A stretch of 64,000 bases of DNA from Bacteroidales bacterium (GCA_035299085.1 DATGXG010000026.1:10568-74567), one strand, 5' to 3'. Positions 1 through 42,124 are shown, numbered from the stretch's first letter. Translations and numbers: made by a program. The notes: generated by a model not told the origin, from the sequence alone.

Positions 1-344
1 CATCCTGCACTCCATATTGTAAAGCTTCTTTTACCGGTTTTCTGAATCAACCGCTCAATACCTTCTTCAAGCAGATAATCAAAATGACCCGGTTCACGAA
101 AAAAATCGGTTTTGTTGGTCGTTACTGCATCAATCATCAGGGTGATCTCATTATGATCGCCTGATGAAAAGGCATAATCAACATATTCTTTGAAATTGCT
201 GAAATGTAATGCCTGTAGTCTTTTTTGCAGCCTGCATTGTAGAAGGGTCTTTTTAACGGGTGGTAGTTTTATCCCGTACTGGCTCATGATAAATGAGCTG
301 AGTCTCTTATATTCCCTTTCTTCTAGTTGTATTATATCAGCCAT
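1..344 (-). CDS. cheR: Chemotaxis protein methyltransferase CheR, N-terminal part (gene runs off the left window edge)
   Basis: Absent from the ORF track because there is no stop in the window. Manual minus-strand translation from the ATG at 344..342 gives MADIIQLEEREYKRLSSFIMSQYGIKLPPVKK...TNKTDFFREPGHFDYL...SFTIWSAGC. This covers the CheR N-terminal helical domain, the TxFFRE motif and the start of the IWSAGC SAM-binding motif. Confidence 0.85.
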   Translation of the reverse strand, partial: MADIIQLEEREYKRLSSFIMSQYGIKLPPVKKTLLQCRLQKRLQALHFSNFKEYVDYAFSSGDHNEITLMIDAVTTNKTDFFREPGHFDYLLEEGIERLIQKTGKRSFTIWSAG

Positions 345-345
345 A

Positions 346-513
346 TCAGGCAAGATCGGTATTTTCCCACATCATTGTTTTTTGGTGAAATCGCTGAACA
401 GGCGGTTGACCGGAAAGGTCATCGTTGCTGACAATCGAAGCTAAAATTCTTTCCACTTCACTCCTGAGATCAGTTAATTCATCTTTCAAAACCGGCGTAC
501 TCTTTTCCATCAT
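346..513 (-). CDS. Small hypothetical ORF (55 aa) between cheY and cheR
   Basis: Manual translation gives MMEKSTPVLKDELTDLRSEVERILASIVSNDDLSGQPPVQRFHQKTMMWENTDLA. Its ATG overlaps the cheY stop (ATGA at 510..513). Its TGA (346..348) lies 1 nt before the cheR ATG. It is below the ORF-track size cutoff and has no recognisable domain. Confidence 0.35.
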   Translation of the reverse strand: MMEKSTPVLKDELTDLRSEVERILASIVSNDDLSGQPPVQRFHQKTMMWENTDLA

Positions 514-872
514 GATAAAACTTTTTCGATCATTTTTTTAAATTCACTTATTTCAAAGGGCTTCCTGATCCATGCGGTGATCATGGCTTCTTTTGCCTTC
601 TGTTGCTTTTCTATGTTGGTATCGGTGGATAATACAAAAATGGGAACATATTTGTACACTTCACTGTTTCTTATATTTTTTATCAGTTCAGCACCGTTCA
701 TATTGGGCATGTTGTAATCGGTTATCAGCAGGTCCACCGGCCTGCCGTCAAATAAACCCAATGCTTCTTTTCCGTCAGAAGCTTCATCAACATGATATCC
801 CATGTTTTCAAGGGTCTTTTTGATTATTTGCCGTGAGGTGTTAAAGTCTTCAGCAATTACGATTCTTTTCAT
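510..872 (-). CDS. cheY: CheY-like single-domain response regulator (paralog 1)
   Basis: 120 aa and receiver domain only. Acidic pocket IAEDF, phosphoacceptor context LLITDYNMPNMNG, conserved ST (VLSTDT) and KP (IRKPF). Confidence 0.85.
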   Translation of the reverse strand: MKRIVIAEDFNTSRQIIKKTLENMGYHVDEASDGKEALGLFDGRPVDLLITDYNMPNMNGAELIKNIRNSEVYKYVPIFVLSTDTNIEKQQKAKEAMITAWIRKPFEISEFKKMIEKVLS

Positions 873-1065: not shown

Positions 1066-1758
1066 ATGCCCGAAGTGTCCCATGAAAAGCAATGTAAGGA
1101 ATGCACCCTGGATTGTGTTTTTTCTTCTGTCCATGCCAAAGAACTGTCCGGTTTTCAGAATTATAAACGTGAAATTATTTTCAGAAAAGGTGAAACGCTT
1201 GTTAAGCAGGGAAGCATTCAGTCCACCATCCTGTTCATCAATGAAGGGTTTGTCAAACATACGATCGAAGGATATCACAATAAAGATGTCATCATCCGGT
1301 TATCCGGGAAGAACGAATACATTGGGCTGAACCTGTTATCATGGAAAAATGAGTCATTATACACCACGGAAGCTTTAAAAAAGACACGGGTATGCATGAT
1401 TGAATCGTCGTACTTCAGAAAACTTTATACAAATTATCCTGTTCTTTTTCTGCGGTTATTTACGAATTTCAGTGAAGAGCTTGATTACCTGTACGAAAGA
1501 CTAAAGATTATCGGTACAAGAAATATGCAGGGAAAACTGGCATCCGCCCTTCTTTACCTGTCGGATTATGGTCAGAAACAAGAAGACATTTATTCGCATA
1601 TTACACGAAAAGATCTGGCTGAACTTTCAGGAATGTCTGTTGAGAGCATGGTCCGGATGTTGAATGAATTTAAGCATGAAAAGCTGATTCAGATAAAGGG
1701 GAAGAATATTTTGCTCAATAATCCGGATATGGTCAGGATTCTATGCCGAGTAGGTTGA
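1066..1758 (+). CDS. Crp/Fnr-family transcription regulator with an N-terminal Cys cluster (FNR-like)
   Basis: 230 aa. cNMP-binding-type beta-roll (FRKGETLVKQGS...), C-terminal HTH (TRKDLAELSGMSVESMVRMLNEFK). Cys at residues 10, 13, 17 (CKECTLDC) and 110. Confidence 0.8.
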   Translation: MPEVSHEKQCKECTLDCVFSSVHAKELSGFQNYKREIIFRKGETLVKQGSIQSTILFINEGFVKHTIEGYHNKDVIIRLSGKNEYIGLNLLSWKNESLYTTEALKKTRVCMIESSYFRKLYTNYPVLFLRLFTNFSEELDYLYERLKIIGTRNMQGKLASALLYLSDYGQKQEDIYSHITRKDLAELSGMSVESMVRMLNEFKHEKLIQIKGKNILLNNPDMVRILCRVG

Positions 1759-2254
1759 TCGAATTCCAGTTAGTTGCTGATTTGATTTCTCTCAGGAAGC
1801 TGCAGCTGATCACACCGGCGAGAGTATCAAATACAACCTTTCTGCCTTTGTGACCTCCTACCTCTACCGAATTGACAACCAGGTTATGCTCTTTTACAAA
1901 GTCATAAGCTGCCCCGATATTCTTTTCAGCCACGTTAATGGTTGAATTCTCAATCCGCAATACAGAAGCACCACCGTATATTCTTACAAATATCCTGTTC
2001 TTCCTGGCCCCGGCCTGTATCATTTTATTCAGTAAAATCCTGAGAGAAGTGTCGCCGTATTTCAACGGGAGATCATCTTCTTTTTTATAAAAAGGCATCA
2101 TGTAATGATTCATGCCGCCGATCTTCATTTCCCTGTCATACATGCATACTGAAACACATGAACCCAGCACCGTAGATATCTTCATAGGTTCTGATGTAAC
2201 AATAAGTTCTCCGGGAAGGAGGTAGGTTATTTCATTGCATATAAACTCTGCCAT
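1733..2254 (-). CDS. cheD: Chemoreceptor glutamine deamidase CheD
   Basis: 173 aa. Contains VLGSCVSVCMYD (the CheD catalytic Cys context), GGMNHYMMP and IYGGASV. It is the last gene of the main che operon. Confidence 0.85.
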   Translation of the reverse strand: MAEFICNEITYLLPGELIVTSEPMKISTVLGSCVSVCMYDREMKIGGMNHYMMPFYKKEDDLPLKYGDTSLRILLNKMIQAGARKNRIFVRIYGGASVLRIENSTINVAEKNIGAAYDFVKEHNLVVNSVEVGGHKGRKVVFDTLAGVISCSFLREIKSATNWNSINLLGIES

Positions 2255-2299
2255 ATGCTTTCGTTTACGTCGGAATCACTTTTTTTGTTTGATTCAAAA

Positions 2300-3544
2300 T
2301 TAAAATCTGTAGAAGATAGTCGTCAGTAAACGGGTGTTCTGAACATAAACAGGATTGGCCAGTTTACCGTCAGGACTGCCGGTGCCATAGCCTGCACGCG
2401 TGTATTCCAGTTCGATTCCGGCATTAACAGGTCCTGCTTTAATCAGAAACCGGGGAGAGACTCTGAAAACACTCTTTACAGGCATTCCCATGGTGAAATA
2501 GAATGGCCCTTTTACATCTGACGCAGCACCTATGCATTCTGAATATCCGGCAAAAATACCTGTCTGAAATTTGTCATTCTGATAGCTAATTTCTGACCAT
2601 ATTGATGCTGTGCTTAAGGGCTCATAGCTTACAATTCCTTTTAAACTGTTGATTGTGTCTTTTACAACATATCCTCCGATACCCAGCAGATCGCTGCCAT
2701 TTTCAAGATAAACACCTTCAATCTTCCAGGTAAGTCTACGCAATACATATTTAAGATAGAATTCTGCCGAAATACCATCCACAGTACTAGAAGTCTGGTA
2801 CCCTTTCCCAGTCTTTATTTCAGGTTTGATTTTCTTATATCCGATATTGGTTCCTATCACTGTTTCGGTTGTACCTTTAATTCGTATCTCAGCCGAAACA
2901 ATTAAGTCGGGCATATGTGAATCTCTGAGATATTTGGAAGAGGTGCCTTCTGGTCCGTTCGAGCAATAATCCCTTTGTGTCAGCATTGTAAAACTTAACC
3001 GGAAGATTCCGGGCAGGTATGAAAATCCAACCTGGGGAGCTCTTGAAAAGGGCGCTATTGGTGATCCCGTATTAAATGAGAGCGTTGAAGGAAAGCATGA
3101 AGTGGCAAAAAACGGGTGCCAAGACTGACCTGCAATGATTTCCGCCTTCTCCCACCGTAATTTAAGATATGCATGCCGAAGTCGCAGCATATTTGTATTG
3201 GCATTGCTTCCCCCGAAAAAATCACCTTCAACAAGGCCGGAGACTTTCGCTTTGCCGACTTCAATTTCTGAAACGCTAACGGACAGATTGGATTGAATAG
3301 GCAGGAAATTTAAGGATGGTGCATCATTCAGATCTTTATGATCAGGATCAAATGATTGAGAAGCAGGATACAAAAGAAAATGTCCTTCACGTGCATTCAC
3401 TGTCTGGCGTGTATCGTAAAACAGATCTGTTTTTATCAACCCGGAAACTTTAACAGTGGCCGTATTGTTATTCTGACCGTTAACCAGGCTAAAGCCGGGT
3501 AACAGGAATATCAGGACTGAAAATGCAACATTCTTCATTATCAC
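2300..3544 (-). CDS. Outer-membrane beta-barrel / porin-like protein encoded inside the che operon
   Basis: 414 aa. Signal peptide MIMKNVAFSVLIFLLPGFSLVNGQ. Alternating beta-strand pattern throughout and a C-terminal aromatic terminus ...TTIFYRF. Its start overlaps the cheW stop by 4 nt (3541..3544). The family assignment (DUF1597-like porin) is only a guess. Confidence 0.6.
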   Translation of the reverse strand: MIMKNVAFSVLIFLLPGFSLVNGQNNNTATVKVSGLIKTDLFYDTRQTVNAREGHFLLYPASQSFDPDHKDLNDAPSLNFLPIQSNLSVSVSEIEVGKAKVSGLVEGDFFGGSNANTNMLRLRHAYLKLRWEKAEIIAGQSWHPFFATSCFPSTLSFNTGSPIAPFSRAPQVGFSYLPGIFRLSFTMLTQRDYCSNGPEGTSSKYLRDSHMPDLIVSAEIRIKGTTETVIGTNIGYKKIKPEIKTGKGYQTSSTVDGISAEFYLKYVLRRLTWKIEGVYLENGSDLLGIGGYVVKDTINSLKGIVSYEPLSTASIWSEISYQNDKFQTGIFAGYSECIGAASDVKGPFYFTMGMPVKSVFRVSPRFLIKAGPVNAGIELEYTRAGYGTGSPDGKLANPVYVQNTRLLTTIFYRF

Positions 3545-4023
3545 TGGGCTGCTTTTTCAGTGATTTCAGAAAGTTCATTTACACTCAACACATGATCCGT
3601 ATTCATTACCATAATGAATCTGCCATCACGTTCGATGAAACCGTCAAGGAATTCCGGGTTATATTTAATACCCAGGTCAGGAACCGATTTAATTTCCTTA
3701 AAATCGAATTCGATCACATCAGTTACCTGGTCAACAATTAATCCCATTAATACTATTTTATCATTTGAATTAATTTCCACAATAACCACCATTTTCTCAG
3801 CCAATTCATTATTCTCAATTTTAAAACGTTTATGCATATCAATAACTGGCACAATCGATCCCCTGAAATTAATTACACCGGGTACATATTCTGAAGAATC
3901 CGGTATCCGTGTTATTTTATCAAACTGAATGATTTCTAAAACCTGGTAGACACTGATGGCAAAATTCTCTGTGCCGATCTCCAGATTTATATAGCTCGTT
4001 TTTTTATCTATATCTGTAATCAT
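3541..4023 (-). CDS. cheW: Chemotaxis coupling protein CheW
   Basis: 160 aa single CheW-like domain (ITRIPDSSEYVPGVINFRGSIVPVIDMHKRF...GLIVDQVTDV). Confidence 0.9.
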   Translation of the reverse strand: MITDIDKKTSYINLEIGTENFAISVYQVLEIIQFDKITRIPDSSEYVPGVINFRGSIVPVIDMHKRFKIENNELAEKMVVIVEINSNDKIVLMGLIVDQVTDVIEFDFKEIKSVPDLGIKYNPEFLDGFIERDGRFIMVMNTDHVLSVNELSEITEKAAQ

Positions 4024-4026
4024 TGT

Positions 4027-6021
4027 TTAGTCTTTAAGTTTTGTGATATGATTAAAAAGAAAATTGGTATCCAGGATGAAGGCAAGGTCGCCATCCACCA
4101 GGATACTACCGCCTGAAAAATAAGGCTGGTTAACAAACAACTCACCTAATGGCTTAATAACAGCCTGGTGTTCTCCGACGATTTCATCGGCGATAATGGC
4201 GTATCGTCTGTCAAATTTGTTGATCACAACCACCATCTGGTCCTTCGATACCGATGAAGTGTAGCGAAACTGTTCCCGCAGAGAGACAAGGGGAATCGGG
4301 TGATTTTTATATTCCAGGTAACGATTATCCCTTTTATTCAGAATCTGCTGTTTTTCCCTGTAACAGTATTCAATATCCATTACCGGAATCAGGACTTTGG
4401 TTTCAGCAATATTCACCATCAGGGTATCCACAATTGTTAGTGTTGTGGGAAGCTTCATTGTAATTGATGTTCCCAGGTCCTTTTCAGTGAAGACTTCCAG
4501 ACTGCCACCCACACCGTTTAGCTCCTTTCTTACTACATCCATTCCAACGCCCCGGCCTGAAACAATGCTTACATTCTCATTCGTGGTGAAGCCGGGTTCC
4601 ATGATCATGGTGATCAATTCATCTTTTGTAACTACCTGGTCCTGTGTAATGAATCCCTTTTTAATAGCACATTCCCTCACACGGTCAAGGTTAATCCCGC
4701 TTCCGTCGTCCTGAACCTGAATGATAACGCTGGCGCCTGAATAAAAGGCGGTGATTTTTAGCAACCCTTCCTTTTTTTTGCCCTTTGCCAGTCGCTCTTC
4801 GGAAAATTCAATCCCGTGGTCAATGCTATTCCGTATTATATGCTGTAATGGACTTTCAATTGATTTAAGAATGGTTTTATCAATCTCTATATCCTGGCCT
4901 TCGATAAGCAGTTGCACATTTTTCCCCAGATCCCTTGAGAGATCCCTTACCTGCCTTTTAAACTTATTCAACAAACTGCCAACAGGTATAAGTCGCAGAT
5001 CAAGAGCATTGTTTCTGAACTTTTTTGTCAACTTCTCGATGTTTTCAAGGGCATTGTTAAGTTTGGAATCATTATACACCATAGCTCTTGCCTGAACAGT
5101 AGCGGTTTCAGTAACCAGCTCACTAACCAGGTTCATTAATTCATCCAGTTTATGCGATGAAACATTTACAGTTGTTTCAGTATCGGTTTTTACGGTTTCA
5201 GCCTGCACCTGGTTTGATGGTTCCTGAATGGCAGCGGCAACTGCTTCCTCTTTCACAATCTCAGGTAGTTTCTGAAGGTATTGACGGATATGTGCCGTTA
5301 TATCTTTCTTGTTTTTATATAACTTTTTAATCTTCAAATAAACATGGCCTTCAGGTTCAATAGATTCAGCGGTTACCGGCAGGACGCAAAATTCATCCTG
5401 TTCGTAGAAAAGAAATATATCATTCAGCTGTTCACGTGAAACGGTACTTCTAAGGTAAACTTCCCAGGAAGTAGTACAAATTTTTTCACGGTCAGAAGTA
5501 TTCTTTAATTTCCCCTTGTCATGAATGATGCAAACAAGTTGTCCGGACTGTTTCAATTCTTCAATTGAGTTCTCGGGTTTTAAGCCCCGCTCAAACACAT
5601 TCTTATCTGGTGTAAAAAGAATGACATAAGTATCCGTTTCATTTTCCTGAGAAACGGATTCCGGAGTATCAAGTTCATTGTGCAATCGCTTAAGATCATA
5701 ATCTGCCTCACTTTTTTTACCGTCAAGCATGGCCAGCATAGTATCTTTAGCCTTAAGGGTAGTATCAATGATCCGGCTGTCTGCCTTTAATTCCCCGTCC
5801 CTGATCTTCGAATAGAGGTTTTCAAATTCATGTGTAAGTCCCTGGATATTCCTGAACCCGACCATACCGGCCGAGCCTTTCAGGGTGTGCATGATTCTGA
5901 AAATACTATTGATAATCTCCGGATTGAGCGGATTCTGTTCCAGCCTCATGAGGTCATCCTCAAGTTGCATCAGCAATTCCTTTGCTTCTGTAACAAATCC
6001 CTGTATGAATTCATCTATCAT
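4027..6021 (-). CDS. cheA: Chemotaxis histidine kinase CheA
   Basis: 664 aa. N-terminal Hpt with MHTLKGSAGMVGF, dimerisation region, HATPase (IRNSIDHGIE..., DDGSGIN, GRGVGMDVV) and a C-terminal CheW-like domain. Overlaps the upstream cheY by 4 nt. Confidence 0.9.
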   Translation of the reverse strand: MIDEFIQGFVTEAKELLMQLEDDLMRLEQNPLNPEIINSIFRIMHTLKGSAGMVGFRNIQGLTHEFENLYSKIRDGELKADSRIIDTTLKAKDTMLAMLDGKKSEADYDLKRLHNELDTPESVSQENETDTYVILFTPDKNVFERGLKPENSIEELKQSGQLVCIIHDKGKLKNTSDREKICTTSWEVYLRSTVSREQLNDIFLFYEQDEFCVLPVTAESIEPEGHVYLKIKKLYKNKKDITAHIRQYLQKLPEIVKEEAVAAAIQEPSNQVQAETVKTDTETTVNVSSHKLDELMNLVSELVTETATVQARAMVYNDSKLNNALENIEKLTKKFRNNALDLRLIPVGSLLNKFKRQVRDLSRDLGKNVQLLIEGQDIEIDKTILKSIESPLQHIIRNSIDHGIEFSEERLAKGKKKEGLLKITAFYSGASVIIQVQDDGSGINLDRVRECAIKKGFITQDQVVTKDELITMIMEPGFTTNENVSIVSGRGVGMDVVRKELNGVGGSLEVFTEKDLGTSITMKLPTTLTIVDTLMVNIAETKVLIPVMDIEYCYREKQQILNKRDNRYLEYKNHPIPLVSLREQFRYTSSVSKDQMVVVINKFDRRYAIIADEIVGEHQAVIKPLGELFVNQPYFSGGSILVDGDLAFILDTNFLFNHITKLKD

Positions 6022-6383
6022 GCCAGAACTTTTTGAACCAGTTTCTTAAATTCAGTTATCTCAAAGGGTTTCCTTATCCAGGCAGTGATTTTTGCATCTC
6101 TTGCCCTTGCTTGTTTATCGATGTTCGTTTCAGTGGAGAGTACGAAAATCGGTATATATTTGTATACTTCTGTGCTTCGGATGTATTCTACAAGCGATCC
6201 CCCATCCATGTTTGGCATGTTGTAATCTGTAATCACAAGGTCAATTGTGCTTCCGTCGAAATATCGCGTGGCATCTCTTCCGTCAGCGGCCTCATCAACC
6301 ATATGCCCCATGCCTTCCAGAGTTTTTTTTATAATCTGTCTCGAGGTATTAAAATCCTCTACTACAATGATTCTCTTTTTCAT
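6018..6383 (-). CDS. cheY: CheY-like single-domain response regulator (paralog 2)
   Basis: Receiver domain very similar to the 510..872 product (VVEDFNTSRQIIKKTLE, VITDYNMPNMDG, VLSTET, IRKPF). I place the start at MKKRIIVVED (6383) rather than the ORF-track start at 6407, which would overlap the MCP stop. Confidence 0.85.
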   Translation of the reverse strand: MKKRIIVVEDFNTSRQIIKKTLEGMGHMVDEAADGRDATRYFDGSTIDLVITDYNMPNMDGGSLVEYIRSTEVYKYIPIFVLSTETNIDKQARARDAKITAWIRKPFEITEFKKLVQKVLA

Positions 6384-6403
6384 AACGAACAGGATTTCAG
6401 AAA

Positions 6404-8455
6404 TCAAAAGTTTTCGAAATCCTTGTCTGATGAAGCCACAGTCCCCAAAGTTTTCTTTGGTTCATGATGAAGGGTTTCCCTGATTTTAGAAGAAGCAGCC
6501 TTAGTTTGAGTTGCGTGTTTTTTGAAATTGTTTTCCCCGTACTTTTTCTGGATTTTATCTTCATCACCAACTTTGAAATAGGCGACAGCTTCTTTCAATG
6601 TTTCAGCCTGAGCGGATAGTTCTTCGGCACTGGTTGCCATTTCTTCAGAAGATGCAGCATTTTGCTGGGTAACGATATTCAATTGTTGAATGGCACTGTT
6701 TATCTGGTCAGCTCCTGAATTCTGCTCAACACTTGCTGCTGTAATTTCCTGGACCAGTTGTGAAGTTTTCTGTATTTCCGGTACCAAAGCCTCGAGAGAT
6801 TCGCGTGATTTTTCGGTAATCTTCAGACTATTCCTGGACAGGCTTTCAATTTCATCAGCTGCCAGTTTGCTTCTTTCAGCCAGCTTACGCACTTCAGCAG
6901 CCACCACAGCAAATCCGCGTCCGTGTTCACCGGCTCTTGCCGCTTCAACAGCTGCATTCAAAGCAAGAAGATTTGTCTGGAATGCGATATCATTAATAAT
7001 TGTTATTTTTTCAGCAATAGTCTGAATGGTGTCAAAACTTTCCCTTCCTATTTTGCTCATTTCTATCATACTATCGGTTGCCTTTCCGGAAATGTTCTCG
7101 GTTTGCCTTGCATTATCGGTATTTTGCTGGATATTGCTGACCATTTCTTCCATCGACGAAGAGATTTCCTCTGTAGATGAAGCCTGTTCAGTGGCTCCCT
7201 GTGATAACTGCTGTGAACCATTGCTGATTTGTGAACTGGCAGCGGCAATACTGTCGGCACCTGTTCTGATATTCAGCACAATTTCCCTCAATTTATCGAG
7301 CATTTGTGTAAGAGAATCTGCCAGATCTCCTATTTCATCATGCTGATCAACTATTAATGTAGCTGTAAGGTCGCCGCGTGAAATTTTCTTTGCAAATTCA
7401 ACACCCTGTTTAAGTGCACGGGTTATAGAACGGCTTAATGCAACAGTAATGATAATAAATATTCCTATTCCGATAAGTACTGCAACAAGAATGGCATATG
7501 TGGTTCTTCTTACAATTTTCAGAAATTCATCCTGGAAGATACTAGCGGCAACATATGATTCAATTTCAGGTAGATATTTATAATATTGTTTTTTAACTCT
7601 GCCTTCCCAAGAGTATTTTCCTGATCCATAGCCGCTCTTGTCATTTTGAAGCTGCTTGAAGAATTCGCTGTCTTTTTCGTTTGAACCTTCCTTGGTTGGA
7701 TGGATTATTAGGTTACCGGTATTGTCAACCAAAAAAGGATATCCTGAATCGAAATACTTTTTTGAACTAAAGTATTCTTTCAGAGAACTCATATCTTTCT
7801 CCGGTGTTCCTGTTGCCACTACCAGTTGTGTCCCGTCATTGAGTGTAAAACCTTTATAAGCTGTTAAATACCACTCGTCTAATACAACGGCACGGTCAAC
7901 AAATTCTTCGCCTTTGTCAAGCGCTAAAGCAACAGGTGAATCATTAGGAATCAAAGTATTAATTGCCCGGTTGCCATCCTTTTGGATAACAGATGTTGAG
8001 ATCCTGACATATCCGGCGTTTGTTTTTTGAAGAATGGTACAGACAACACCGGTTAGTTTAGAAACTTCATCCACATAAGTAGTACTATTATATAAACTAT
8101 TGCCATTAATTGTTACTTTTTTAATCTGAAGTTGCTGAACTTCTTTTGTAGACTGGTTTTTAGCTTGTATATCAAAAGATTGTCCGGTTGAAACCACATG
8201 GTTGTTTGTAAAAATCAGGTCAATTCCTACATCAGTGGCGCGCCTGGTTGTGTTTTGACCCTGTTTGATCTGTTCTTTAATAATTGAAGCCAGATCATTC
8301 ACCTGTTCAAACATTCGGGTATCTGTGTCATTAACAAGCTGCCTTCTTTGTGAGGTTATAGTATAAACCCCCAGCAACGAAATGATGACCACAAAAGCAA
8401 GGTTGAAAACAAGGTTCAACCTTGCACCAATCTTTAAATCATTTAATTTTTTCAT
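6404..8455 (-). CDS. Methyl-accepting chemotaxis protein with a large periplasmic Cache-like sensor
   Basis: 683 aa. TM1 ([18 protein letters not shown]), a roughly 280-aa extracytoplasmic domain with Cache-like motifs ([26 protein letters not shown]), TM2, HAMP ([13 protein letters not shown]), and an MCP signalling hairpin ([40 protein letters not shown]). Confidence 0.9.
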
Positions 8456-8622: not shown

Positions 8623-9264
8623 TTATTTAAACAGGTTGTTTTTCAACCCAAATGAGATAAGTCCGGCTGTATTTTTTGATTCAGTTTTTATTTTTAAATT
8701 ATACCGGTGGTTCGTTATGGTTCTCACACTTACAAATAACTTGTCAGCAATTTCTTTATTTGAAAAACCGTTATATATAAGTTCCAGGATTTCAAGTTCC
8801 CTGCTTGTAAGGGAAATTTGGCTTTTCTGTTTTTTGTTATTCTCACCCAATTTCCTGGTGAAATAGGACATCAGTTCCTGGGAATAATAAACCTGTCCGT
8901 TTATTACTGCTTTTAAAGCCGTTGCAAGTCCTTTGTTATCGATATTTTTCAAAAGATAACCGTTAACACCTGCATCTATAAAATGCGATATCGTGTCATC
9001 CGAATCCAACATAGTAAGTATAACTGTCTTGATAGCGGGATAATCTTTTTTTATTGTCTTTAACGTTTCGTAACCATTCATACCAGGCATCATCACATCA
9101 AGAAGCACAATATCCGCTGGTTTTTTTTGTTGTTTATCAATGAATTCTTCGCCATTTGATGCCTCAAAAGCAAATTCAACAAAACTGAACCGTTTAATAG
9201 CCAATGCAACTCCGTTTCGATAAAAAATGTGATCATCCACAATAGCTACTTTAGGAAGATTCAT
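8623..9264 (-). CDS. NarL/LuxR-family response regulator (REC + LuxR HTH)
   Basis: 213 aa. Receiver (VAIVDDH..., VLLDVMMPGMNG) and C-terminal LTSRELEILELIYNGFSNKEIADKLFVSVRTITNHRYNL. Confidence 0.9.
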   Translation of the reverse strand: MNLPKVAIVDDHIFYRNGVALAIKRFSFVEFAFEASNGEEFIDKQQKKPADIVLLDVMMPGMNGYETLKTIKKDYPAIKTVILTMLDSDDTISHFIDAGVNGYLLKNIDNKGLATALKAVINGQVYYSQELMSYFTRKLGENNKKQKSQISLTSRELEILELIYNGFSNKEIADKLFVSVRTITNHRYNLKIKTESKNTAGLISFGLKNNLFK

Positions 9265-9275
9265 AGTAAGTGAGA

Positions 9276-10670
9276 TTAAAATGAGGATTTTGGAAAGTTC
9301 AGTTCAAAACGGATACCTTGTGTATCTTTCTTTATGAATTTATAGGTGCCCTGGTAAAAAATAATCCGGTTCAGAATAGATTTTAATCCGATACCTTTAT
9401 TCATTTTTAATTCGTTATTCAAATCAAAACCTTTTCCTTCGTCAAGATATACCAGTTGAATACTCTTAGCCCGGAACCATAAAATCAAAGAAATACTTCG
9501 GCTGCCTGAATGCTTCATCCCGTTATTTATTAGTTCAAGGACTATATGATAAAGCGATAGGATGAACGGGTTTTCCATCTGTTCTTCTTTACCCTTAATC
9601 TTTAGATTTATATTTACCTGGCCTGCCTTATTGATCTGATCGATCATCTTCTTCACTGAATAAGCAAGTCCCAGTTCAATCATATTATTGGGTGTGAGAT
9701 TGCTGGATATTGTCCTGATTCTATCAGATGCCTCATCAGTCATTTTTATAAGATAGTTCAACAACCTCACCTGTTTGCGGGGCTCATTTTTGAGAGATTT
9801 TAATTCGTTGATATAGAGCTTTATACCTGAGAAGAAAGGCCCGAGTTCATCATGTAAATCGGATGCGAACCTGTGTCTTTCATTCTCTTCTGTTTCAATT
9901 ATAGCCTGAATCAACCTTTTTTCGGTCTGTTTTCTTAGGGTTATGTCTCTTATTAGTGCCAGTAAAGCTTTCTTTTTTTTATACGTAATTAACCGGCTGT
10001 ATAATTTTATATATGCCAATTTATTATCCGGACTAATCAATTTGTATTCAACCGGGGGTAATGAGAAACCTTTCCTGATACTTTGCAATCTTTTCGTTAA
10101 TTTGTCCCGGTCTGATTCATCAATAAGACTGAAAAGATTTACATTTTTATCCATAAGATTGGCGAAAAAATCGATATGATGGATCTTCCGGTTGGCAGTG
10201 AGCATATTTCCCTTAAAATCAAGGATGAACATAGCTTCATCCAAAAATTCATCACTATTCAGAAAGCTAAGCACAGTCTGATCGAGGTTTTTAGCCACCT
10301 CATCAATGAATATTCCGCTCACAATACAATCTTCCCTGCTAAAATCACCCATACATCTAAGTTGTAATTCAAATCTGACCTGATGCCCCTGCTTGTCCCT
10401 GATTGTAATTTGTCTGGTTAAAGTTGGATTTTTATTGATCTGATTAAAAATCCCTGCTTCTTTCCCGGCAAAAATCCGGTATATATTTTCATTGGTTTGA
10501 TAGAATTCTTTAATGGATCGATACTTTAACAGCGATGCAAGCTTTTTGTTTATTAAATAGGATGTTCCTGATCGATTTAAAATAATAAAGCCGGGTTCAT
10601 GAATCTGACTTAGCAGAAAGACATACAGTTGCTGTTCAACTGCAGGATTTGCAGGCTGATCGGAGTTCAT
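9276..10670 (-). CDS. Cytoplasmic PAS-containing sensor histidine kinase (HisKA_3 / NarX-type)
   Basis: 464 aa with no TM segment. PAS-like N-terminal regions, H-box ERHRFASDLHDELGPFF, and HATPase (ELINNGMKHSG..., DEGKGFD, GIGLKSILNRI). Lies 11 nt upstream of the NarL-type regulator. Confidence 0.85.
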   Translation of the reverse strand: MNSDQPANPAVEQQLYVFLLSQIHEPGFIILNRSGTSYLINKKLASLLKYRSIKEFYQTNENIYRIFAGKEAGIFNQINKNPTLTRQITIRDKQGHQVRFELQLRCMGDFSREDCIVSGIFIDEVAKNLDQTVLSFLNSDEFLDEAMFILDFKGNMLTANRKIHHIDFFANLMDKNVNLFSLIDESDRDKLTKRLQSIRKGFSLPPVEYKLISPDNKLAYIKLYSRLITYKKKKALLALIRDITLRKQTEKRLIQAIIETEENERHRFASDLHDELGPFFSGIKLYINELKSLKNEPRKQVRLLNYLIKMTDEASDRIRTISSNLTPNNMIELGLAYSVKKMIDQINKAGQVNINLKIKGKEEQMENPFILSLYHIVLELINNGMKHSGSRSISLILWFRAKSIQLVYLDEGKGFDLNNELKMNKGIGLKSILNRIIFYQGTYKFIKKDTQGIRFELNFPKSSF

Positions 10671-40664: not shown

Positions 40665-42062
40665 TTATTCTTCCACTATCAGATTCCTGATGCGTTCAAT
40701 CTGAAGTTGTTTATTAACCTCACGCAGATTACGGGCTGTTTCAGTAAAGTACTGGTGCCCGCTGATAAACTTTACCTGCATGCTGTTCCAGTCCTTAAGT
40801 GATTTTATTTTTGATCGTTCTTTCAGTTCCATGAAAAGCAGGTTTGAAACGGGGATCATATCACTTCTTCCAAGGTAATCGAGGTCTGCATCACACATAA
40901 TTTTCTCAAGCTTATTGGCTGGTCGGGGAGGCAGTTTGGTAGCCATGATCAGTTCACAGATTAAATCAATCTGTGCCGTAGTATAATAATATTCAGTGAG
41001 CATTTCCCGTGCCACAAGGCAGCTGAAGTATTCATGATTATCATACGATATGGTATGCCCGGCGTCGTGGAACAAAGCAGCGGTTTTCAGTAACAGCAGC
41101 TCTTCATCAGTCACACCTTCCCCGATTCCGATGAGTTCCACCTGGGTAACCACATCCACTGTATGTTTTATATTATGATAAAACAGACTGGGCGGCAATT
41201 CTTTTTCGAGCTTATCGAGTAAATATTCCTGTAAATCAGTGAACTGTATCAACCCAAAACGCAGGCTGAATTTTTTGTTTGGAATAATCCCCTTGCCCTG
41301 TAAAGAATAATCTGTCTTAATGCTTTTTACCGAATAGAGGGTGATTTCACCTTCATATTTAACCGGCATTTTTTTATAATACTCACAATTGAACAGGTCT
41401 TTTACAAGTTCGTATGTAGTAGCTGATATGAGTATTTGTCCTTCTTCACAAAATTGCCTGATGCGGGCGGCATGGTTAACTGTTTCGCCTTTAACCTCAT
41501 AATGAGGTCGTTTTTTACCGCTTACATCGGCAATTACTGTTCCTGTATGTATTCCGATCCGGAGTTTCCAGATATTGCTGAACGCATTGGTGCGTTGCAG
41601 ATCCCTGAAAAAGTATTGCATTTCAATAGCCGCCAGCAATACTTCTATCGGATTGGTTATATTTTTCTGCGGAATACCTCCTACAAGCATGAGAGAATCG
41701 CCGATTGTACGGATGCTGCGAACCGGGAACTTGGTTACTACCTGCTGAAGCTTGATAAAAATTTCATCAAGTGAATCCACATAAAGTTTTGGATCCTGTT
41801 GGGATGTAATTTGTTCAAAACCGATCACGTCAGCATATAAGACAGTTGCAGTCTTAAACCGCATTACATGCGATTTCTTTTCTGTGCCCGGCTTTGTTGA
41901 AATTTCATTTTTACCCAGTTTATTGAGGAGGACTTTATATTTTTCTATTTCCTGCGAAAGGAATTCATTTTGCCGGTTCAGTTTTTCATTCTCGGAAGTA
42001 AGGGATTTATTCTGAGAAATAATTTCTGCAATGTGCTTTAATATACCTGTTTTTCTGGGCAT
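40665..42062 (-). CDS. Coiled-coil + class III adenylate/guanylate cyclase + HD-domain fusion protein
   Basis: 465 aa from the ATG at 42062. N-terminal heptad-rich segment (SENEKLNRQNEFLSQEIEKYKVLLNKL). Cyclase motifs VLYADVIGFEQIT, IRTIGDSLMLVGG, RIGIHTGTVIADVSG and KGETVNHAARI. C-terminal HD motifs YHNIKHTVDV and AALFHDAGH. Confidence 0.8.
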   Translation of the reverse strand: MPRKTGILKHIAEIISQNKSLTSENEKLNRQNEFLSQEIEKYKVLLNKLGKNEISTKPGTEKKSHVMRFKTATVLYADVIGFEQITSQQDPKLYVDSLDEIFIKLQQVVTKFPVRSIRTIGDSLMLVGGIPQKNITNPIEVLLAAIEMQYFFRDLQRTNAFSNIWKLRIGIHTGTVIADVSGKKRPHYEVKGETVNHAARIRQFCEEGQILISATTYELVKDLFNCEYYKKMPVKYEGEITLYSVKSIKTDYSLQGKGIIPNKKFSLRFGLIQFTDLQEYLLDKLEKELPPSLFYHNIKHTVDVVTQVELIGIGEGVTDEELLLLKTAALFHDAGHTISYDNHEYFSCLVAREMLTEYYYTTAQIDLICELIMATKLPPRPANKLEKIMCDADLDYLGRSDMIPVSNLLFMELKERSKIKSLKDWNSMQVKFISGHQYFTETARNLREVNKQLQIERIRNLIVEE

Positions 42063-42124
42063 CAAATATCTACGTGACTAAAAATTACTATTCTTTTACG
42101 TTCACTATACCGGAAAAGGTTTAT

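Follow-up and report, generated by a model that had tools for sequence, protein, structure and literature searches.

The window, a 64,000-nucleotide stretch of a Bacteroidales genome, carries on its minus strand a chemosensory gene cluster that includes a gene for an outer-membrane porin (Table 1). A first-pass annotation had read six minus-strand genes here, mcp, cheY, cheA, cheW, an outer-membrane protein (OMP) gene and cheD; an ORF check combined with Pfam and NCBIfam searches bears out all six and their boundaries, together with the 4-nt overlap of cheY and cheA and the 3-nt gap between cheA and cheW. Its reading of the cheW–OMP junction as ATGA is incorrect. The sequence there is CAG-TGA-TA-ATG, which allows either a GTGA overlap with a start at GTG 3544 (414 aa) or a start at ATG 3538, two bases past the cheW stop (412 aa); gene callers pick the latter. 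The span of 1733..8455 assigned to the cluster holds for those six genes but falls short of its full extent, as the Fnr-like regulator, CheY2 and CheR also belong to it and CheB lies just past the window edge.

Table 1. Genes of the chemosensory cluster and its surroundings in the window.
Feature	Coordinates	Strand	Evidence
CheR methyltransferase, N-terminal part, cut at window edge	1..344	minus	tblastn
CheY2, second CheY-like response regulator	510..872	minus	Pfam Response_reg
Crp/Fnr-family regulator	1066..1758	plus	Pfam cNMP_binding and HTH_Crp_2; NCBIfam Fnr-like match
CheD chemoreceptor glutamine deamidase	1733..2254	minus	Pfam CheD and NCBIfam CheD
DcaP-like outer-membrane porin, 412 aa	2300..3538	minus	AlphaFold model, Foldseek and conserved position
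CheW coupling protein	3541..4023	minus	Pfam CheW, 104 bits
CheA	4027..6021	minus	Pfam/NCBIfam Hpt, H-kinase_dim, HATPase_c and CheW domains; receiver domain absent
CheY	6018..6383	minus	Pfam Response_reg; best NCBIfam match CheY
MCP	6404..8455	minus	Pfam Cache_3-Cache_2, HAMP, MCPsignal
NarL/LuxR-type response regulator, partner of the 9276..10670 kinase	8623..9264	minus	Pfam Response_reg and GerE
Cytoplasmic PAS/HisKA_3 histidine kinase	9276..10670	minus	Pfam HisKA_3, PAS_9, HATPase_c

The CheY of the cluster is 82–83% identical to its orthologues, and CheY2 is 69% identical to it. The first ~114 codons of cheR lie in the window and the gene continues past its edge; a tblastn search with residues 1–118 of the CheR of a relative (L082) found 63% identity at 353..3. 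Past the edge, a contig of the same organism (L087) encodes CheR (284 aa) and CheB (351 aa), along with one more CheW and one more MCP. The window and this contig together hold a full taxis-type gene set of MCPs, CheA, two CheW, two CheY, CheR, CheB and CheD. With an MCP bearing the MCPsignal domain (PF00015, 115.6 bits against a cut-off of 34.6), a CheA with its domain set, separate CheW and CheY proteins, CheR and CheB, this is a complete Che-type cluster, and it draws attention to the presence of an entire Che pathway in Bacteroidales.

The GC content is even over the cluster (0.40–0.42), and neither spacer flanking the porin gene contains a terminator-like site. Matches to a sigma-70-type promoter occur at chance level (30 found, 33 expected), with a model that is not applicable to Bacteroidota, and the window holds no excess of the Bacteroidota −7 motif TAnnTTTG (46 found, 64 expected). 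One copy of the motif, at 2295–2302, overlaps the porin stop codon ahead of cheD, which starts 45 nt after the porin gene, and could be a separate promoter for cheD. The Crp/Fnr-family gene, whose product has a Cys-rich N terminus, is convergent with cheD and overlaps it by 26 nt, a pairing that recurs in one relative (L089).

The first-pass annotation took the OMP to be a genuine envelope protein, and its features agree. It begins with a hydrophobic leader (MKNVAFSVLIFLLPGFSLVNG, with predicted cleavage before Q), and it ends in ...FYRF, the C-terminal Phe being invariant among 42 homologues. The 412/414-aa reading frame itself has no Pfam or NCBIfam match. An AlphaFold model (pLDDT 84, pTM 0.82) is a barrel with about 16–18 long strands by DSSP, the first beginning at residue 29, ~6 residues past the predicted signal cleavage site. 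A Foldseek search with this model returned DcaP of Acinetobacter baumannii as the top match (6eus_A, E = 3e-17, TM 0.77 normalised to DcaP), followed by 16-stranded trimeric porins. The sequence match to DcaP is weak (E = 1e-4) and identity only 16%; the Pfam DcaP profile (PF19577) does not match the window porin at E ≤ 0.01, and matches 10 of the 42 homologues, with a best E of 8e-9. DcaP, a carboxylate channel, is strongly anion-selective and has a ~60-residue N-terminal periplasmic coiled coil (10.1101/306035), which the window porin lacks. Thus, as modelled, the 412-aa protein is a DcaP-like, porin-type barrel without the DcaP coiled coil. Nine arginines are invariant in the family alignment, and the loop that joins strands 5 and 6 is highly conserved. 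The family is otherwise unannotated, and it is large: at least 579 stretches of GTDB species-representative genomes carry it, in Bacteroidota, Ignavibacteria and Aminicenantes. A metagenome scan with a single porin sequence and overly strict patterns returned one distant and uninformative locus.

The porin gene directly follows cheW in seven relatives (P0001, P0005, L082, L084, L085, L086 and P0026), and in an eighth (L001) it comes after the MCP gene instead; all genomes compared are metagenome-assembled genomes (MAGs) of uncultured organisms. Across the cheW-adjacent relatives the porins are 50–91% identical, and in six relatives compared the porin is 50–54% identical against 60–66% for CheA. 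In L082, L084 and L085 cheW and the porin gene overlap by 8 nt, from the porin ATG to the cheW stop. Of the cheW–OMP–cheD order put forward for comparison, the cheW–OMP part is therefore kept, whereas cheD lies upstream of the cluster in most relatives. The surroundings are also conserved: L082, L084 and L088 are syntenic with the chromosomal region around the cluster, and the histidine kinase gene lies upstream of the MCP gene in most relatives examined, namely the seven cheW-adjacent ones and L088. That kinase is 41–42% identical to its copies in L082, L084 and L086, and its partner regulator 55–66% identical to the syntenic genes of L082, L084, L085 and L086. Since the porin adjoins cheW in such divergent relatives, it is not a recent insertion; we rejected a foreign origin of that kind on the uniform GC content, the syntenic neighbourhood and a position kept at ~50% identity.

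Even so, comparison from the CheA side led us to reject the view that the porin is a fixed part of the core che cluster. Three CheA-orthologous clusters chosen for having no porin match (L088, L089 and L090) all proved to be without the gene. Contig-length matching places it in at least ~38% of the orthologous clusters whose contigs reach 5 kb, a rough lower bound. In L088 the MCP is of the same Cache_3-Cache_2 type and CheA is orthologous, with no porin within 22 kb; the Cache_3-Cache_2 receptor can therefore function without a cluster-encoded porin. L089 (CheA 63% identical) has no DcaP-like porin, and there an Alginate_exp barrel gene lies 3 nt upstream of the gene for a TarH/4HB MCP. L085 carries both pairs, the DcaP-like porin and the Alginate_exp barrel with a TarH/4HB MCP; in L090 the MCP lacks a periplasmic domain, and no barrel is encoded. 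The barrel type thus tracks the receptor type rather than the kinase core.

The receptor of the window cluster has a full-length Cache_3-Cache_2 domain (155.2 bits, profile positions 10–295 of 299), as does PacF, the formate receptor of Pectobacterium atrosepticum. A profile of the window sensor matches the formate-bound sCache structures 8py1 (E = 2e-11) and 8py0 (E = 5e-11) over its membrane-distal module. T140, R151 and Y200 of the window MCP align with the formate contacts T100, R111 and Y160 of R6 given in PMC11804620, so that the window MCP shares the salt-bridge Arg and the Thr and Tyr contacts of the PacF-derived domains 8PY0 and 8PY1. Across orthologues the Arg and Tyr contacts are invariant and the Thr site is Thr or Ser. 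A pocket Phe (R6 F175, R3 F182) closes the PacF-type pocket and excludes acetate (PMC11804620); in the window MCP this pocket-limiting site is A214. It is likewise Ala in L085, L088 and the main L086 MCP, and Phe in L082, L084, L001 and the second L086 MCP. The window MCP therefore appears to be a PacF-type small-carboxylate sensor, for which the replacement of the limiting Phe by Ala makes a slightly larger acid, such as acetate, plausible. The natural Phe/Ala switch among orthologues offers a handle on ligand-size selection in PacF-type sensors. A porin partner for PacF goes unmentioned in the available text of PMC11804620.

Elsewhere, the porin family keeps the company of acetate and formate genes. 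Of 80 genome loci that encode a family member, 46 have a gene for AcsA, for an ActP-type symporter or for an ADP-forming acetate-CoA ligase/Pat within 4.5 kb, though these loci are not independent because related species share synteny; other loci adjoin SatP/YaaH or formate-THF ligase. In Ignavibacteria, family members abut genes for sCache_2 MCPs (L023, L033 and L069). These MCP-adjacent porins fall in other branches of the porin family tree, suggesting that the adjacency arose there independently. Their MCPs are close relatives (E = 2e-49) of PscD, McpP and Adeh_3718 (5g4y, 4k08), which are sCache_2 chemoreceptors for C2/C3 carboxylates (PMC5062169). The L023 sensor shares ~50% identity with both PscD and acetate-bound Adeh_3718 and keeps all six named contact residues (PMC5062169); these receptors differ in Cache family from the window MCP, and so inform the substrate of the porin family and not directly the window receptor. 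On gene neighbourhood, then, the substrates of the family would be C1–C2 monocarboxylates, as compared with the dicarboxylates and phthalates carried by DcaP, and formate/acetate-class acids form a testable substrate proposal.

On balance we favour, with some confidence, the reading that the porin is a ligand-access channel matched to the receptor of its own operon and passing small monocarboxylates of about the size of formate or acetate. The porin would be co-transcribed, and probably translationally coupled, with the core chemosensory genes. As a substrate-selective DcaP-like channel it would carry such acids over the outer membrane, and the periplasmic level of chemoeffector at the Cache_3-Cache_2 receptor would then follow the outside concentration. 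The signal would run from the MCP through CheW/CheA to CheY, with adaptation by CheR, CheB and CheD. DcaP itself has no linkage to che genes, and a literature search for a porin inside a che operon found no description of such a gene-level pairing. The nearest precedent lies in Escherichia coli, where Hazelbauer reportedly found in 1975 that maltose chemotaxis depends on the LamB maltoporin. There too a specific outer-membrane channel is required, at low ligand concentration, for a receptor pathway that senses in the periplasm. However, lamB belongs to the maltose uptake regulon, outside any che operon, and that case involves neither translational coupling to cheW nor the receptor-matched swapping of barrels seen in the present che clusters. 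Chemotaxis models take the outer membrane to be transparent to ligands; a che-operon porin that switches with the sensor family speaks against this, and it seems that, in some diderm lineages at least, crossing the outer membrane is a step of chemosensing that is under selection and specific to the receptor. On the other side, formate and acetate are of a size that would let them through the general porins of many bacteria, so that a dedicated channel is not obviously needed.

Genes for assimilation and uptake (Acs, ActP, Pat, SatP) overwhelmingly accompany the family, which could mean that the porin takes up acetate or formate for feeding and came to lie in the che operon through convenient co-expression with taxis towards that compound or through neutral gene-order drift. 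That L088 manages without a cluster-encoded porin fits such a role. We nonetheless think it unlikely: no inner-membrane transporter or assimilation gene lies beside the porin in any che cluster examined, the barrel type changes along with the MCP sensor type, the start/stop overlap with cheW is kept in relatives, and porin and MCP genes are separately adjacent in Ignavibacteria. Feeding and sensing roles of one porin can coexist. It is very improbable that the barrel is instead the regulated output of the pathway or a structural partner of the array, such as a Che-gated permeability or an envelope-spanning anchor. Its gene does sit between core che genes, and Che pathways with non-motility outputs are generally known (Wsp, Che3-type); but the mature protein is nearly all barrel and offers no periplasmic or cytoplasmic domain on which CheY or the array could act, close paralogues lie beside metabolic genes with no che genes, and another barrel family is present where the MCP type differs. 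Of the two roles that the first-pass annotation had offered for the OMP, the comparative evidence favours admission of the ligand of the Cache-type MCP, and none of it favours regulated output.

As to what the pathway controls, a scan of 40 ORFs over the 64 kb of the window turned up no flagellar gene, in line with the earlier reading, and none was seen in the 20-kb flanks of the relatives' clusters. That the cluster serves ordinary flagellar chemotaxis, with the flagellar genes elsewhere in the genome and the porin merely accessory, is possible but on the unlikely side. The complete taxis-type gene set would suit it, as would the location of the Ignavibacteria porin–MCP pairs in che-gene clusters, in a phylum that includes flagellated members. 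Besides the negative scan of window and flanks, the Bacteroidota hallmarks of the contigs, SusC/SusD pairs and Por_Secre_tail proteins, count against it, and we know of no flagellated member of the class Bacteroidia. This reading touches the output only and is compatible with the porin explanation.

Che pathways with alternative cellular functions include the Wsp, Frz and Che3-type systems. Here too a Che-type cluster occurs in a lineage not known for flagella, and a non-flagellar output is therefore possible; the window cluster differs from those systems in lacking their typical output domains and genes, with neither a diguanylate-cyclase response regulator nor a FrzZ/FrzS-like gene. Carried further, the access-channel reading leads to a tentative and rather doubtful proposal: flagella-less Bacteroidales may direct some behaviour other than flagellar motility, T9SS-dependent gliding for example, towards fermentation acids through a complete Che pathway. 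Its sensory input would come from two-membrane receptor–barrel cassettes that evolved repeatedly, including in Ignavibacteria, and that pair the DcaP-like porin with Cache_3-Cache_2 and the Alginate_exp barrel with 4HB/TarH sensors. Literature searches on Che systems in gliding Bacteroidia and on the pathway class of 34H receptors gave nothing usable, and the class-specific HMMs of MiST stand outside Pfam (PMC6943060). By length, the signalling domain of the window MCP probably belongs to the 34-heptad class, with 14 residues fewer than Tsr in three alignments.

All six minus-strand reading frames that the first-pass annotation assigned to the che cluster are present where it placed them, and five of the identities are backed by Pfam and NCBIfam (see table). 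The 4-nt overlap of cheY with cheA and the 3-nt gap between cheA and cheW are likewise correct. The junction of cheW with the porin gene, however, is not the ATGA it described: the sequence is CAG-TGA-TA-ATG, in which a GTG start at 3544 gives a GTGA overlap and an ATG start at 3538, the choice of gene callers on two related contigs, gives a 2-nt spacer. GC content is even throughout the cluster. Contig L087 carries a CheA and a porin both 100% identical to those of the window and thus belongs to the same organism. Its order is MCP–CheY–CheA–CheW–porin–CheD, a convergent Crp/Fnr gene, CheY2, a 54-aa ORF, CheR, CheB, CheW2 and a 4HB/PAS MCP, giving the system a full taxis-type complement. The 54-aa ORF (15512–15676 on L087) has no Pfam match. 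CheD and the convergent Crp/Fnr-family regulator (Cys-rich, Fnr-like N terminus), the 3' ends of which overlap by 26 nt in the window, form a conserved two-gene module with a second instance at L089:5151–6470, a locus reached from a CheA orthologue; compared with the commoner order CheW–porin–CheR–CheB, this module and CheY2 appear to be inserted between porin and CheR.

Features of the che cluster and associated elements in the window
Feature	Coordinates	Strand	Basis or remarks
MCP	8455..6404	-	Cache_3-Cache_2 (155 bits), HAMP, MCPsignal (Pfam/NCBIfam)
CheY	6383..6018	-	Pfam/NCBIfam
CheA	6021..4027	-	Hpt, H-kinase_dim, HATPase_c, CheW-like; no receiver domain
CheW	4023..3541	-	Pfam/NCBIfam
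Porin ORF	3544/3538..2300	-	no Pfam or NCBIfam match of its own
CheD	2254..1733	-	Pfam/NCBIfam
CheY2	872..510	-	69% identity to first CheY
CheR N terminus	353..3	-	tblastn with a relative's CheR; first 118 residues, continuing past the left window edge
CheD and convergent Crp/Fnr regulator	1066-2254
54-aa ORF	346-510	-	between cheY2 and cheR
PAS/HisKA_3 kinase and NarL/LuxR-type regulator	8623-10670	-	directly upstream of MCP
Terminator-like hairpin	8397-8425	-	11-bp stem and T-run
Cyclase-HD protein	40665-42065	-	adenylate/guanylate cyclase fused to HD domain

The claim that the embedded frame encodes a porin-like outer-membrane barrel is supported by structure prediction. The alignment-based AlphaFold model, a confident one (pLDDT 84, pTM 0.82), is all β except for the signal helix, strand 1 beginning about 6 residues past the predicted cleavage site between VNG and Q. 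In a Foldseek search of the PDB the top match is DcaP of Acinetobacter baumannii (6eus; E=3e-17, TM 0.77 on target), ahead of the classical 16-stranded trimeric porins OmpT, Omp32, PorB and OmpF. By sequence the match to DcaP is weak (E=1e-4), and the Pfam DcaP family is reached by 10 of 42 homologues, the window porin not among them. DcaP forms trimers whose Arg-lined channel conducts carboxylates and selects strongly for anions, and it bears a ~60-residue coiled coil at the N terminus (10.1101/306035); the window porin lacks this coiled coil. In the family alignment 44 columns are invariant, nine of them Arg and another the C-terminal Phe, and the loop joining strands 5 and 6 is very conserved. 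This large family has no annotation; the scored candidates include 718 clusters at E<=1e-3, and GTDB species-representative genomes (Bacteroidota, Ignavibacteria and Aminicenantes) contribute at least 579 stretches. The best match in the protein search was 91% identical, although the gene is called on L087 and the window CheA was found at 100%; absence from the hit list is therefore no proof that a gene is absent.

Of eight porin relatives examined from among the closest, seven keep the porin immediately 3' of cheW in a cluster of the window's type, (CheD ... HisKA_3 kinase–LuxR regulator)–MCP(Cache_3-Cache_2)–CheY–CheA–CheW–porin–(hybrid kinase)–CheR–CheB, so the arrangement is conserved. The sole exception, P0019, is a ~50%-identical paralogue located 3' of a SatP/YaaH-type acetate/succinate channel gene. 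Depending on the locus, the porin is followed by CheD, by a second MCP, by a hybrid kinase or by CheR–CheB. In L082, L084 and L085 cheW and the porin gene, read from its ATG, overlap by 8 nt, and an additional genome locus, L001, has the order CheB–MCP–porin. In relatives compared as DNA, identity to the window is 82–83% for CheY, 68–71% for CheW, 60–73% for the MCP, 60–66% for CheA and 50–54% for the porin, and the wider neighbourhood is also syntenic (a Cys/Met-metabolism enzyme, an FG-GAP/UnbV_ASPIC protein and an NmrA-like protein). The cheW–porin linkage is old and vertically inherited; recent insertion is ruled out by the retained position, the divergence of the porin and the syntenic flanks. 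The cytoplasmic PAS/HisKA_3 kinase and NarL/LuxR-type regulator, which precede the MCP in most relatives examined as well, could control the operon or carry a transcriptional output from the pathway.

Seen from CheA, the porin is frequent in orthologous clusters, not universal. Fifteen CheA orthologues lie on contigs equal in length to contigs with porin matches; by matching of this kind the porin occurs in at least ~38% of orthologous clusters on contigs >=5 kb, a rough lower bound. A small set of three further orthologues, on contigs whose lengths fitted no porin match, was picked because the porin was likely absent, and tblastn of 22 kb at each found no porin remnant. L088 (CheA 64%) keeps the MCP type, with CheW followed by CheB; L089 (63%) has, in place of the Cache MCP and DcaP-like porin, an Alginate_exp-family barrel 3 nt upstream of a TarH/4HB MCP; in L090 (56%) the MCP, of 355 aa, lacks a periplasmic domain, and there is no barrel. 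L085, a porin relative's locus, carries both pairs, its Alginate_exp barrel and TarH MCP being 71% and 72% identical to those of L089. Comparison of these four loci indicates that the barrel family tracks the sensor family of the receptor, not the kinase core. In this second pair (L085:2133–4881; L089:6666–9617), the barrel (407/424 aa) ends 3–4 nt before the MCP; tblastn found no copy in the window.

All Cache_3-Cache_2 sensors known to have been characterised are formate receptors, namely PacF of Pectobacterium atrosepticum and derived sCache domains (PMC11804620). Seven cluster MCP sensors, combined in one profile, match the formate complexes 8py1 (E=2e-11) and 8py0 (E=5e-11); of the formate-contact residues, the salt-bridge Arg (R151 in the window) and a Tyr (Y200) are invariant, and a Thr (T140) is Thr or Ser. 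These matches argue that the window MCP is a small-carboxylate sensor, as judged from sequence. In one derived domain, R6, a Phe (F175) is said by the authors to close the pocket and exclude acetate (PMC11804620). The window MCP has Ala here (Ala214), as do L085, the main L086 MCP and L088, whereas Phe is kept by L082, L084, L001 and the second L086 MCP. Ala214 may provide a larger pocket taking acetate or a similar acid. The signalling domain is 14 residues shorter than that of Tsr, a deficit constant in three alignments, which would imply the 34H class. About 30 nt into the MCP coding region, counted from its 5' end, lies a terminator-like hairpin, which could be a chance occurrence or an attenuator-like element.

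Elsewhere, the porin family keeps company with acetate genes. Most of 80 genome loci with a family member (~40% identity) lack che genes. An acetyl-CoA synthetase lies directly downstream on the same strand in 10 of 39, and directly upstream are an SSF symporter (7/47) or an ATP-grasp/CoA-ligase/GNAT fusion (5/47). NCBIfam assigns representatives of these neighbours to AcsA (975 bits, cut-off 657), ActP-type cation/acetate symporter (747 bits, cut-off 750) and ADP-forming acetate-CoA ligase/Pat. At least one of the three lies within 4.5 kb at 46 of the 80 loci, which are phylogenetically non-independent; we estimate a chance expectation of around 1% for a neighbourhood of ~8 genes. The partner genes vary between clades and phyla. 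In one Aminicenantes genome (L019:9351–12704) a formate-tetrahydrofolate ligase lies directly 3' of the porin, so that formate joins acetate among the compounds to which the family is linked. In many Bacteroidota loci (L004, L014, L025, L027, L028, L034, L035, L038, L054–L057, L062, L072 and L077, near position 10000 in each), a TPR protein of ~250–270 aa precedes the porin, often with a ~250-aa metallophosphoesterase downstream and an ActP-like symporter nearby.

The family also adjoins receptors at other loci. At three Ignavibacteria loci an sCache_2 MCP starts 3–23 nt after the porin. The L023 sensor is ~50% identical to PscD-SD (5g4y, E=2e-49) and to the acetate-bound Adeh_3718 crystal structure (4k08, E=3e-46), and retains the C2/C3-carboxylate contacts Tyr90, Trp92, His103, Tyr143, Trp145 and Lys156. 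In a neighbour-joining tree, crude and without support values, the che-linked Bacteroidales porins form one clade and the Ignavibacteria MCP-linked porins occupy two positions outside it, among members linked to ActP and Acs, implying that the family may have been joined to chemoreceptor genes at least three times independently. In a Bacteroidales locus (L071:2–3790), an sCache_2-PAS-CBS-DUF294 (nucleotidyltransferase) sensor comes directly after the porin, and judging by the domains the two would make a porin and Cache-sensor pair with a non-chemotaxis output.

We propose that the porin would give receptor-specific outer-membrane permeability to an attractant presumed to be of the formate/acetate class. 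Coupling to cheW would then yield porin in fixed proportion to the signalling complex; translational coupling in che operons has been argued to buffer expression noise (PMC2716512). The periplasmic Cache sensor would read the ligand, with CheA, CheW and CheY as relay and CheR, CheB and CheD for adaptation. A linkage that is neutral, or that serves feeding only, is possible and compatible with this mechanism. That the porin is instead a regulated output or structural partner is unlikely, because the modelled protein consists of the barrel without further domains and the family of that barrel changes along with the sensor family. The parts are of known kinds (Che pathway, DcaP-like porin, PacF-type sensor); our literature search found no account of a che operon that houses a coupled gene for an outer-membrane channel, the family of the barrel agreeing with that of the sensor. 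The closest known precedent in function is LamB, which is needed for maltose taxis in Escherichia coli; that porin is part of an uptake regulon.

That the system is an ordinary flagellar one is a lesser but real possibility, which would bear on the output only. No flagellar or gliding-related genes were found among the 40 window ORFs scanned. All sequences compared come from MAGs or metagenomes. The assignment to Bacteroidota is sound, since SusC/SusD pairs and Por_Secre_tail proteins adjoin the che cluster on relatives' contigs. Finally, the window encodes a cyclase-HD protein as well as the cNMP-binding Crp/Fnr regulator beside cheD, and a cyclic-nucleotide link between this protein and the che cluster is conceivable.
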